Position numbers and translations under genes: made by a program. Shown here in pieces: positions 31,141 through 34,367 of a stretch of 64,000 bases of DNA. The notes beneath the pieces were generated by a model, which saw only the letters and a list, made by a program, of their open reading frames with translations, searched no databases and was not told where the DNA came from. Source of the stretch: a virus (lineage: Duplodnaviria > Caudoviricetes); IMG/VR virus record IMGVR_UViG_3300028591_000070, positions 64,001 to 128,000 of that record; one strand, written 5' to 3'. Positions within the stretch are counted from its first letter, which is position 1. Each line of letters starts with the position of its first letter.

Positions 31141-31920
31141 ATGATTGAATTTAAAGCATGCAGAAAATGTCATCATACTAAAGGTCCAGTTCCTGAAGGC
31201 TATTATATGAGTGAGTCGGTGAATCCTAGAACTGGTGTAAAAGTTCCTGTTATGATTGAATGCGAACATCATAGAGTTTGGCGAATTAAGAAAGCTGCAG
31301 AAAAGAAATTTTTGGATGGTGGTTTTAATAAAGACTTTTTTGACTACGATATTGCAGATTACAAAGGAAATGAGTCAATTTCTAATGTAAGCCGTTTAAT
31401 TAAATATGTTCACTTATTTGATGATAAAGATATAAAGAATGAAGTTGTAAAAAGTGTTTTATATTTATATGGTCCAAATGGTACGCAGAAGACAACTTTA
31501 GGTAATTGGATTGGCTCAGAACTTATTCAAAGAGGTATTTCTTGTCAATATGCTCTTATGAAGAAAATTATCGATGAACTTTGGGAATCTCAGCGAAATG
31601 AAGAATCTAAAGCTTATATTGATAAATTATTAAAGTGCGATGTCTTGGTTATTGACGAGGCTTTTTCAAAAGATAAAATTCATCTCTGGCAATCTGGAAA
31701 TCAAATTGGATATATTGATGAATTTTTAAGAGAAAGATTAAATAATAGAAAAGGAATTATTTTTATTTCAAATAATGCTCCAGATGAAATTGAGTCTCAA
31801 GGTTTCAGCCATTCAATTCATGATTTGGTAAACAGAGAATTGCTAAAAACAGATGGAGCAATGAAAATGGTTGATAAATATTTTGATAATATTGGAGAAA
31901 TTCCAGAGAGATTGTTTTAA
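31141..31920 (+). CDS. DnaC/IstB-like AAA+ ATPase (helicase loader)
   Basis: LYGPNGTQKT Walker A variant, CDVLVIDE Walker B, IIFISN, N-terminal Cys/His cluster. Confidence 0.8.
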   Translation: MIEFKACRKCHHTKGPVPEGYYMSESVNPRTGVKVPVMIECEHHRVWRIKKAAEKKFLDGGFNKDFFDYDIADYKGNESISNVSRLIKYVHLFDDKDIKNEVVKSVLYLYGPNGTQKTTLGNWIGSELIQRGISCQYALMKKIIDELWESQRNEESKAYIDKLLKCDVLVIDEAFSKDKIHLWQSGNQIGYIDEFLRERLNNRKGIIFISNNAPDEIESQGFSHSIHDLVNRELLKTDGAMKMVDKYFDNIGEIPERLF

Positions 31921-32306
31921 TGGATAGGTTAGACTTAAAAAGAAAATTAGTTTGTGAAATGCCAGCTGTGCCTGCTTATTGTGATGTTCCTAAGTTTAAA
32001 GGTGATTTTCATGTGCAGATGTACTATTGGGATGATGATGTGAAGGACTATAGAGCATGCATAAAAGAAGCCCACTTTGATGGTAAATATTTCCATCTCT
32101 ATGATTTAGATGCTTATGAAGCAGTAAACTGGATTGATGATTGGAGTTATTTTACAACAAATATTAAAACTCCAGTTTGTGAAGGTTGGATAAATGAAGT
32201 AAATAAAGGATGGAGAAATCCAAGCCCTTTATGCTGTAAGTTTAATTCAGAAACTAAAAAATATGAAATCATAAAAGAAGATAAACTTAAACTCTTAAAA
32301 GAGTAA
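31920..32306 (+). CDS. hypothetical protein
   Basis: 128 aa, TAATG coupling. Confidence 0.75.
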   Translation: MDRLDLKRKLVCEMPAVPAYCDVPKFKGDFHVQMYYWDDDVKDYRACIKEAHFDGKYFHLYDLDAYEAVNWIDDWSYFTTNIKTPVCEGWINEVNKGWRNPSPLCCKFNSETKKYEIIKEDKLKLLKE

Positions 32307-32311
32307 AAAAT

Positions 32312-32333
32312 AAGCCGCTCAATTGAGCGGCTT
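32312..32333. terminator. bidirectional intrinsic terminator
   Basis: perfect palindrome AAGCCGCTCAATTGAGCGGCTT between convergent genes. Confidence 0.85.
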
Positions 32334-32338
32334 TATTA

Positions 32339-32776
32339 TTAGAAATTATCAGGTACTTGTATTGTTATCAATTCAGAAGCGTCCATGCATTTACCAACTC
32401 CTGGGTCACCGGCAATCAACGCGTGGCGCTTATCAGCATGTCCTAAAATAACTGCTTTAACTATATTTTCCATATCTCTGAAAATGAAGTCGGCATCATT
32501 TGCAATTTCAGTGGCATCTTCATCCATTAAAGCAGCTAATGCATCAGATGGAGCTTCACCAATATGAGAAGCACCTCCATATAATGGGGCATCAGGTTTT
32601 GGAGGAACTGGAGCTTTTGCTTCTTTTATTTTTCTTTCTGGGTCTTTATCAGCATCATAATTTGCAGGATTTTCTTCTGCATTAGGAGCAAAATCATCTA
32701 ATCCTATTTCTTTAGGCATCTCTCCTTTTTCAATGCTTGATAAAATATCTAAAAGACTTTCATTTATATATTTCAC
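32339..32776 (-). CDS. N-terminal fragment of a P-loop ATPase ending in a putative split-intein N-half
   Basis: HALIAGDPGVGK-CMDASELITIQVPDNF-stop; GTG start with AAGGAGAG. Confidence 0.7.
   Translation of the reverse strand: MKYINESLLDILSSIEKGEMPKEIGLDDFAPNAEENPANYDADKDPERKIKEAKAPVPPKPDAPLYGGASHIGEAPSDALAALMDEDATEIANDADFIFRDMENIVKAVILGHADKRHALIAGDPGVGKCMDASELITIQVPDNF
32342..32389 (-). other. putative 16-aa split intein N-fragment (IntN)
   Basis: Cys directly after the Walker A Lys; CMDASELITI resembles intein block A. Confidence 0.6.
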
Positions 32777-32778
32777 TT

Positions 32779-33216
32779 TTACTCTCCTTTAATGCAGTGA
32801 AATAATGTATGCTTCTTAAAAGGACCATAACTTTCTGTTAAAACTAAATCCTGAGTAGGATCTTCAGGAGCAGTTAAAGCCGTAATAAATGGACACTTCA
32901 ATTCTGATGGATCTGTTGGAGTTGGAACTACAGGAGCTTTAAGGCCTGAATTTACTAATGGTTCTGCAGTATTTAATGAGTATTCAATTGGAGTCTCAGC
33001 CTGAGCAATCAATGAAGCTGGGTCTCTACGATTATAAACTACAACTTCTGCCGGATTAGAAGGCTCAACTGTCTCCTGTTCTTTTTGGAATCCTGGAAGA
33101 ATGTTGCCAATATCCTCTGGAGAAATAAAATATTGAATTACCATTCCCTTTGGAGGAATAAAGTTTATTGCTTTAAGAAAATCTTCTTCGTTTGGTTCTT
33201 GAACTGATATGTACAT
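32779..33216 (-). CDS. hypothetical protein (Pro-rich)
   Basis: 145 aa; ACTAATTAAAAC before ATG. Confidence 0.75.
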   Translation of the reverse strand: MYISVQEPNEEDFLKAINFIPPKGMVIQYFISPEDIGNILPGFQKEQETVEPSNPAEVVVYNRRDPASLIAQAETPIEYSLNTAEPLVNSGLKAPVVPTPTDPSELKCPFITALTAPEDPTQDLVLTESYGPFKKHTLFHCIKGE

Positions 33217-33219
33217 GTT

Positions 33220-33756
33220 TTAATTAGTAGAATTGCGACGAGATCTTTGTTTTAAGGCTTTGCTAATATTTTCATTGTGTGACTTTGGACGTTTTTTAGC
33301 ATATTCAGAAATAGATTTATTTCTATTTGCAATTACATCTTCATCTAAATGAGACATCGACTCGGCAATTTTATTTCTAACCTCCTTTGCTTTTTCTTCA
33401 CCATATAAAATATCCAATGGTGGTTTATACCACTTAATATAATGTGGTTTTGCTTCTTCAAATTCTTTTGTATAATAAATTCTCAAACTTTTAAATTGAG
33501 GCTTATTATAAATTTGAATAAGCTTATTATAACAATATGTTTGCATTTCGCCATCGCTCTCTTTCGCTTTAAGGTAATATAATCTCAAAGCAATTGCCAA
33601 TGGAACTTCGAAAAAATATAAAAACTTATAGGTCATAGTATTTTCAGGAATAAGACCTATGTTTACGAGACTTTGAGTTTTCCTAAATAACTCGTCAAAG
33701 TTTTCAATTTTATCCAAGTCATTCCATTGAGAAATGAATGAAACATCTATAATCAT
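33220..33756 (-). CDS. hypothetical protein with NUMOD3-like basic C-terminus
   Basis: YGEEKAKEVRNKIAES...SHNENISKALK resembles NUMOD3 motifs. Confidence 0.5.
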   Translation of the reverse strand: MIIDVSFISQWNDLDKIENFDELFRKTQSLVNIGLIPENTMTYKFLYFFEVPLAIALRLYYLKAKESDGEMQTYCYNKLIQIYNKPQFKSLRIYYTKEFEEAKPHYIKWYKPPLDILYGEEKAKEVRNKIAESMSHLDEDVIANRNKSISEYAKKRPKSHNENISKALKQRSRRNSTN

Positions 33757-34367
33757 TTTGTGTCATACATCCTTGATGGTGTGAAATATTTTCCTTGATT
33801 ATTATGCTCACAATGTACAAACTTTACTATAGGTTCATCATAAGTAAAATCTGGCGAGCAAAAATAACTAGTATTGAATGATGAACAATGGCCATTAAAT
33901 GAAATCTTTTTATCTGGAATTATTAAGCTAATAGGGTTATCTGCAAAATAATTTCCCATAATCTGATAGTTGAGGCTCTCAAGATTCATGCATAAAACCC
34001 AAGTAAACTTATACTCATTTAATGTTTTAATTATATCAAGTTTTTTAGAAAATGGTGGATTTGATAAAACTAGGTCAACATAGCCAATAGTTTTTATTTT
34101 TTCAAAAAAGTCTCCATCTGGCTCAGAAATGTGAGAATGAATAATTTCTATTTCTTTACCAAATTTTTCTTTTAATGCAATTACAAACTCTGAGTTCTCT
34201 TTATCAAAAGGACACCAAATTCGTGGAATTGGTTTTGTTGGATTCCAATTAGAATAAATTCCATCTATGTAATTTTCTACAAAAGGCATAATTACATCAA
34301 CTAAAATCTTTGGTGTATATAATTCATCATTATCTCTTTTCATTGCATTTCTAATACTTGTTGACAT
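33753..34367 (-). CDS. adenine-specific DNA methyltransferase
   Basis: DELYTP...IWCPFD...GDFF...SNPPFSKK. Confidence 0.8.
   Translation of the reverse strand: MSTSIRNAMKRDNDELYTPKILVDVIMPFVENYIDGIYSNWNPTKPIPRIWCPFDKENSEFVIALKEKFGKEIEIIHSHISEPDGDFFEKIKTIGYVDLVLSNPPFSKKLDIIKTLNEYKFTWVLCMNLESLNYQIMGNYFADNPISLIIPDKKISFNGHCSSFNTSYFCSPDFTYDEPIVKFVHCEHNNQGKYFTPSRMYDTK

Follow-up and report, generated by a model that had tools for sequence, protein, structure and literature searches.

An AAA+ ATPase encoded by two unlinked half-genes of a giant phage, with an atypically split intein at its P-loop

In a 385,934-bp jumbo (giant) phage genome, with 31.7% G+C and 100% complete according to CheckV, we found two half-genes that most probably encode one AAA+ ATPase, the Walker A motif of which (GxxGxGK|T) is interrupted by a 158-residue class-1 mini-intein, atypically split at S1 and trans-spliced. 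The first half-gene lies in the window, i.e. the whole 64,000-nucleotide stretch analyzed here (genome positions 64001-128000), and the second is separated from it by 243,350 bp of the same genome, both being on the minus strand. The first gene would give a 129-aa N-extein followed by a 16-aa IntN, and the second, 243 kb off, a 142-aa IntC followed by a 320-aa C-extein, with the break in the intein located past its first beta-hairpin, at the S1 site. After translation, the IntN strands would join IntC and complete the HINT fold, Cys1 would form a thioester, Thr+1 would attack this Cys1 thioester, and Asn142 would cyclize with release of the intein. The expected outcome is a 449-aa ATPase with its P-loop restored to GDPGVGK-T. 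We infer trans-splicing from the conserved catalytic residues, together with the need to restore the P-loop.

Split inteins whose N piece is small enough to be made by peptide synthesis are in demand for the semisynthesis of proteins and for editing them in live cells. To these is added a candidate with a 16-residue N piece, Cys1 and Thr+1, for which nine natural N-piece variants were found, along with dozens of related C pieces, carried by other ATPases, from which orthogonal pairs could be mined.

The two half-genes and their surroundings

The preliminary description of the window had pointed out an ORF that stops 16 residues past a Walker A motif, with the S/T missing and a Cys next, followed by a terminator and a convergent gene. 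The sequence reads as claimed, on the minus strand, and both the hairpin (32312-32333) and the convergent gene (31920-32306, plus strand) are in place. The 3' end of the N-half consists of ...KRHALIAGDPGVGK (..GDPGVGK), then CMDASELITIQVPDNF, then TAA, and Walker A therefore halts at GK without an S/T. The features of this region, in window positions, are:

32339-32776, minus strand: N-half ORF, 145 aa (ORF translation)
32390..32776, minus strand: N-extein coding part, residues 1-129, with the truncated Walker A GDPGVGK at its end (match to the contiguous homologues P0022 and P0025)
32342..32389, minus strand: IntN, 16 codons, CMDASELITIQVPDNF, with Cys1 as residue 130 (ORF translation; homologue tails)
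32339..32341, minus strand: TAA stop closing IntN (position kept in all complete homologues)
32774-32776, minus strand: N-half start codon GTG (read from the sequence)
32784..32789, minus strand: Shine-Dalgarno sequence AAGGAG, 7 nt upstream of the GTG (read from the sequence)
32312..32333, both strands: bidirectional intrinsic-terminator-like hairpin between the N-half and the convergent gene (9-pair stem with 6 GC pairs, T-runs on both strands)
31920-32306, plus strand: convergent gene, ending just beyond the hairpin

Since its Shine-Dalgarno sequence coincides with the end of the gene upstream (32779-33216), the N-half closes a cluster of minus-strand genes, and the terminator-like hairpin begins five bases past its stop. 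Homologues of the N-half share the start MKYINE. The same cluster holds an EcoRI-type adenine methyltransferase-like gene (33753-34367, minus strand; E 2.8e-5, NPPF motif), and the convergent pair facing the N-half includes a DnaC/IstB-like helicase loader (31141-31920, plus strand; phrog_50, E 3e-20).

The partner was found by a regular-expression scan for H-N-[STC] over the stop-to-stop ORFs of the genome, which gave one convincing candidate, situated outside the window and 212,127 bases past its end:

genome 340127-341515 (L001 7128-8516), minus strand: C-half (IntC-ATPase) ORF, 462 aa (regular-expression scan and translation)
genome 341090-341515, minus strand: IntC, C-half residues 1-142, ending HHN

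The C-half begins MKTITLSIGELF..., and its residues 118-142 read VPVYGFSIDSEKHLYTDTDGMIHHN. IntC is followed by Thr143 at position +1, which opens the 320-aa C-extein (TYTVTETLKKY), with the Walker B motif VIVLDDND downstream. Among the 5,169 six-frame ORFs of the genome, this ORF was the sole match of an IntC-domain profile (E 2e-61). When contiguous homologues were used as phmmer queries, only the two half-genes matched in the genome, which therefore holds no intact copy of the ATPase.

Upstream of the C-half, the leader (L001:8517-8590, genome 341516-341589) is AT-rich, and the gene starts 18 nt past a GGCCAAC...GTTGGCC terminator hairpin. In contrast to the N-half, no recognizable Shine-Dalgarno sequence was found in this leader, which points to a promoter of its own or to initiation of an unusual kind. 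The GTTAATAT motif was absent near the starts of both the N-half and the C-half. The gene just upstream (L001:8591-9259, genome 341590-342258, minus strand) has a weak match to sigma-70 region 4 (PF08281, E 0.002) and may encode a phage sigma-like factor.

Database searches with the C-half gave three types of relatives, namely intein-free, contiguous intein-bearing and IntC-first proteins. The intein-free homologues (564-617 aa) contain the two extein parts in one chain, with GDPGIGK-TY[TE]V uninterrupted at the junction; P0022, P0023, P0025, P0028, P0031 and P0039 have GDPGIGK-T[YF] without an insert. By phmmer and alignment, the N-extein corresponds to the N-terminal region and P-loop of the contiguous homologues P0022 and P0025, and the N-half shares the motifs LDL.KDIE, D.AP, YD..KDPE and KRHA.IAGDPG with the intein-free homologues. 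In the alignment, the segment that opens with the Cys is inserted with respect to these proteins, and from the Thr onward the C-extein can be aligned with contiguous homologues.

These results bear on most of what had been proposed from the window. No partner ORF had been seen there, and the halves were taken to be unlinked; the partner does lie elsewhere, 243,350 bp away. The decisive test set beforehand was the finding of a distant IntC-ATPase ORF with HN-[ST] followed by Walker B, and HHN|T followed by VIVLDDND was found at genome 340127-341515 (minus strand). Insertion at GK/[ST] of the P-loop, with an S/T at +1, was likewise borne out, as intein-free homologues read GK|TY and the +1 residue is Thr. 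With the partner present, and with no homologue reading GKC within an intact ATPase, neither of the two outcomes named in advance as speaking against a split intein was encountered.

Four contiguous relatives, P0011, P0077, P0079 and P0084, carry a full intein at the same site. In one of these, P0011 (770 aa), GIGK is followed by a Ser in place of the Cys (STSYDEKIKISIG...). Judging by its sequence, P0011 may be either a cis-splicing version of the intein with Ser1, or a protein in which GKS is an intact Walker A motif located before a non-splicing insert.

The exteins, joined computationally from the sequence, amount to 449 aa with Walker A restored. AAA+ hallmarks of the extein are the P-loop GDPGVGK|T (if spliced), the Walker B motif VIVLDDND and an AAA+ alpha/beta fold with a lid. 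A model of the contiguous homologue P0022 (pLDDT 74.6) gave AAA+ fold matches (E about 3e-5, TM scores low) to proteasome Rpt, Cdc48/p97, dynein AAA modules, RFC and Vps4. At a threshold of E<=0.01, Pfam AAA (PF00004) matched 16 of 18 homologues, with 1.6e-5 as the best value; the score of the one member that was detailed was below the curated cut-off. Searches for the function of the ATPase, by Pfam, PDB profile, fold and protein atlas, gave nothing beyond 'AAA+ / viral hypothetical', and 50,697 GenBank phage records held no match to the locus (blastn) or to the C-half (tblastn).

Intein identity, predicted docking and conservation

An AF2 model of IntC residues 1-150, made with a family alignment as input, has a HINT fold (pLDDT 91.1, pTM 0.83). 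When this model was compared with the PDB using Foldseek, 35 matches were obtained at E<=1e-3, and the top of the list consisted entirely of inteins or intein-like (BIL) domains, e.g. Pho RadA (3e-7), Cat (1.9e-5), VidaL (1.2e-4) and PolB16 (1e-3), as well as GyrA, TFIIB, DnaB and gp41-1. At the sequence level a family profile was required, as phmmer with the C-half against PDB sequences gave nothing at E<=1. The IntC family profile matched the PDB intein sequences gp41-1, PolB16, CatC, RadA and VidaL (E about 1e-4), with the IntC of PolB16 aligning from position 1 of the profile (E 1.2e-4). A check with Hint-domain HMMs, suggested at the outset, gave a mixed result: Pfam Intein_splicing (PF14890) matches 11 of 39 IntC-family members on other exteins, but its search over the whole genome, along with Pfam on the C-half, reached no HINT or intein model.

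The catalytic residues are largely in place. Cys1 (Cys130) directly follows GVGK and is invariant in 25 of 25 complete homologue tails; the block-B His74 does not vary among 19 split and 21 family sequences; His130, Tyr132, Asn142 and Thr+1 are invariant, and His140/His141 nearly so. Block G is thus HHN|T, with a penultimate His, a terminal Asn and Thr at +1. Together, sequence, fold and comparative data establish the gene pair and the identity of the intein, and the atypically split intein with an ultra-short N-half that had been postulated is accordingly found as a 16-aa IntN with a HINT-fold IntC partner, of the S1 type.

Two substitutions in the ATPase-borne lineage leave room for a different view of what this intein does. 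The Thr of the block-B TxxH motif is replaced by Ala or Gly (AGEH; Ala in the phage protein), and the Asp of the block-F VYD motif by Gly, which counts against reading it as a splicing intein. The intein pieces might accordingly have lost their activity, dock without splicing and hold the ATPase halves together non-covalently. We consider this quite unlikely, since Cys1, the block-B His, the penultimate His, the terminal Asn and Thr+1 are conserved across relatives that are 37-96% identical. Furthermore, a 158-residue domain within GK|T would disrupt the P-loop, and docking alone would therefore not give an active ATPase.

Association of the two pieces was addressed by complex prediction, in which the last 50 residues of the N-half were paired with IntC extended by 33 extein residues. 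A score of 0.63 was obtained (0.71, 0.58 and 0.63 in the individual runs), as compared with 0.01 for the best control; in the benchmark for this docking mark, 58 of 80 solved complexes attained it, as did 2 of 110 mismatched pairs. Contacts agreed to at least 59% between the runs, and the pLDDT of the partners was at least 47, that of IntN being low (47-52). The confident interface comprises N-half residues 128-145, i.e. GK and the 16 residues, against IntC residues 1-12, 33-38, 68-75 (block B), 118-123 (block F) and 140-142 (HHN). In the model, N-half residues 133-140 (in IntN) are paired with IntC residues 3-9 and 35-37. The model of IntC itself has residues 1-7 followed by a helix at 8-19, which places the break after beta2 and before helix alpha1. 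As split-intein complexes have already been solved, the docking result may in part reflect the memory of the model; it supports in silico a likeness to solved split-intein complexes and is not proof of binding. IntN and IntC are both acidic, with net charges of -3 and -8, respectively, so that the charge complementarity between halves described for several canonical split inteins (PMC2677866) is absent here.

Homologues of the N-half fall into 27 clusters at 90% identity, being 68-96% identical. All 25 cluster representatives that reach the end have the Cys plus exactly 15 residues and then a stop, in nine sequence variants. Compared with a relative of 89% identity, the IntN codons show four synonymous and no non-synonymous changes. 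On the side of the C-half, the IntC start MK[TE]IT is kept in 74 retrieved proteins. Both halves are also present in a related genome, on a single 366,067-bp contig (GCA_016648615.1), where they occupy separate neighborhoods and the synteny of the N-half is kept. A 40.8-kb fragment with a split C-half (L002/G001), from a record that is merely 13% complete, gave no N-half.

Seen from the window alone, the N-half could be taken for the remnant of an ATPase gene with a tail that resembles an intein by chance, as nothing follows it there and its comparison with Pfam and PHROG gave sub-threshold P-loop matches only. The existence of a unique complementary partner ORF makes this a very improbable account, as do the stop position and Cys1 kept in 25 of 25 complete homologue clusters, the exclusively synonymous changes in the tail, the Shine-Dalgarno sequence and terminator of the gene, and the related genome with both halves. 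That a chimeric join or a frameshift split one contiguous intein-bearing gene, as might be feared for a metagenome-assembled virus record without end repeats, is practically dismissed by the recurrence of this split, its ends unchanged, in assemblies that are independent of one another (ENA, Logan, JGI and NCBI; 214 member sequences in one N-half cluster and 454 in one C-half cluster), and by the conserved neighborhood that each half has of its own.

Single-locus relatives and the wider family

The gene-breaking route appears traceable, as relatives of the split ATPase keep intein-free, contiguous and single-locus split stages. The latter stage is represented by two loci, which belong to lineages less closely related to the phage. 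In L014, the N-half ends GDSGVGK|C... with a 26-aa IntN; next come an opposite-strand ORF of 319 aa, a 165-aa ORF and the IntC-ATPase. In L016, a 246-aa N-half with a 28-aa IntN is followed by a 338-aa opposite-strand ORF and the IntC-ATPase. The opposite-strand intervening ORFs are:

L014:199-1158, minus strand: intervening ORF, matching phrog_22677 only
L016:919-1935, minus strand: intervening ORF, matching phrog_22677 only

These two are homologous to each other (E 1e-38). They matched no Pfam family and no GIY-YIG or Vsr model, only phrog_22677, the function of which is unknown; they are thus, by position alone, candidates for a free-standing homing endonuclease or another mobile gene. No homologue of the intervening ORF was found in the genome with unlinked halves. 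From these stages we infer a route from a contiguous intein, via a gene fractured within one locus, to unlinked halves, during which the extra IntN helix of the fractured and contiguous forms would have been lost.

The retrieved 50%-identity cluster representatives (P0096-P0205) comprise 74 proteins that start with IntC, as against about 10 with IntC internal, and the IntC-first proteins follow the pattern MK.I.I.IG.LF...HHN|[TS]. Thirty-nine of the 74, with an extein seemingly unrelated to the phage ATPase, were scanned with Pfam, and a diverse set of exteins was found: ClpB-like, AAA_5 (MoxR-like), AAA, RecA, ResIII/SF2 helicase, DnaB, PhoH and ABC ATPases. Nearly all of these are cut at the P-loop, a known hot-spot for inteins (PMC4760082). 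The IntC-first proteins are likely a large pool of S1-split inteins.

A broader and distinctly speculative proposal, which we would hold only tentatively and regard as rather doubtful taken as a whole, is that the phage pair belongs to a large and essentially uncharacterized clade of mini-inteins targeting the P-loop, where the split state with an ultra-short IntN (S1) would be the usual one and not a rarity, and that unlinked halves could turn maturation of the ATPase into a post-translational AND gate. As the halves are in different transcription units, maturation could depend on the expression of both.

Comparison with known split inteins

Natural atypically split inteins have an IntN of 15-37 aa (PMC13014065, PMC10189870), a range that includes the 16 aa found here. 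Only a handful of natural examples with a short IntN are named in these two papers, namely AceL-TerL, GOS-TerL, VidaL and PolB16. At the S1 site, after beta2, VidaL has a Cys-dependent IntN of 16 aa (PMC13014065), and PolB16 one of 15 aa with Ser1 (PMC10189870); the S2 site, after helix alpha1, is that of AceL-TerL and GOS-TerL (PMC13014065). The phage intein has the arrangement of the S1 type: separate genes, an N gene that ends in a short IntN and a stop, and a second gene with its own start at IntC.

VidaL (PDB 6vgv; Burton et al. 2020, as cited in PMC13014065) is similar in its S1 split, its 16-aa IntN, cysteine dependence and metagenomic origin. Its fold matches that of the phage IntC at E 1.2e-4 with a TM of 0.63, whereas the profile match is weak (E 2.7e-3) and the identity in the fold alignment is about 18%. 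It differs in its host protein; the phage intein is known from sequence, sits in an AAA+ ATPase cut at GK|T with Thr at +1, and comes from a complete genome, in which 243 kb separates its halves. PolB16 OarG (PDB 8cpn/8cpo; PMC10189870) shares the S1 split, with a 15-aa IntN, and comes from a gut (sheep) metagenome; its IntC starts with a strand-plus-helix motif, as does the phage IntC. However, PolB16 is cysteine-independent (Ser1/Ser+1), is hosted by a B-family DNA polymerase, and has a 168-aa IntC in which the block-B His is dispensable (PMC10189870), whereas Cys1 and the block-B His are conserved in the phage intein. AceL-TerL, GOS-TerL and Cat (PDB 6dsl) are similar in their short IntN, phage or metagenomic origin and Cys1, and CatC matches the fold of the IntC model (E 1.9e-5, TMt 0.73), but they differ in being split at S2, with an IntN of 25-37 aa, and in having the terminase large subunit as host (PMC13014065).

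The single-locus relatives L014 and L016 resemble what Dassa et al. 2009 (PMC2677866) called 'fractured genes', as both halves are found in one locus around an extra ORF, in agreement with the route by which a contiguous intein was proposed to become a split one. They differ from these in the opposite orientation of the intervening ORF, and in that the inteins of Dassa et al. are split at the canonical site. In the phage genome, the halves are 243,350 bp apart, unlike fractured genes, which are defined by one locus with a free-standing endonuclease gene in between (PMC2677866).

The phage genome is a complete one in which the halves of such an intein are fully unlinked. Halves of an essential-type enzyme located at distant, unlinked loci and joined by trans-splicing are also found in the cyanobacterial split DnaE. 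That intein is split canonically, with an IntN of about 100-120 aa and an IntC of about 35 aa, and it resides in a cellular genome and in a polymerase, not in a P-loop. The phage intein is thus similar to DnaE in its unlinked halves, and differs in its P-loop insertion, viral genome and 16-aa IntN. Judged by sequence, it belongs to the known atypically split S1 type, with Cys1, Thr+1 and a 16-aa IntN that is not the shortest.
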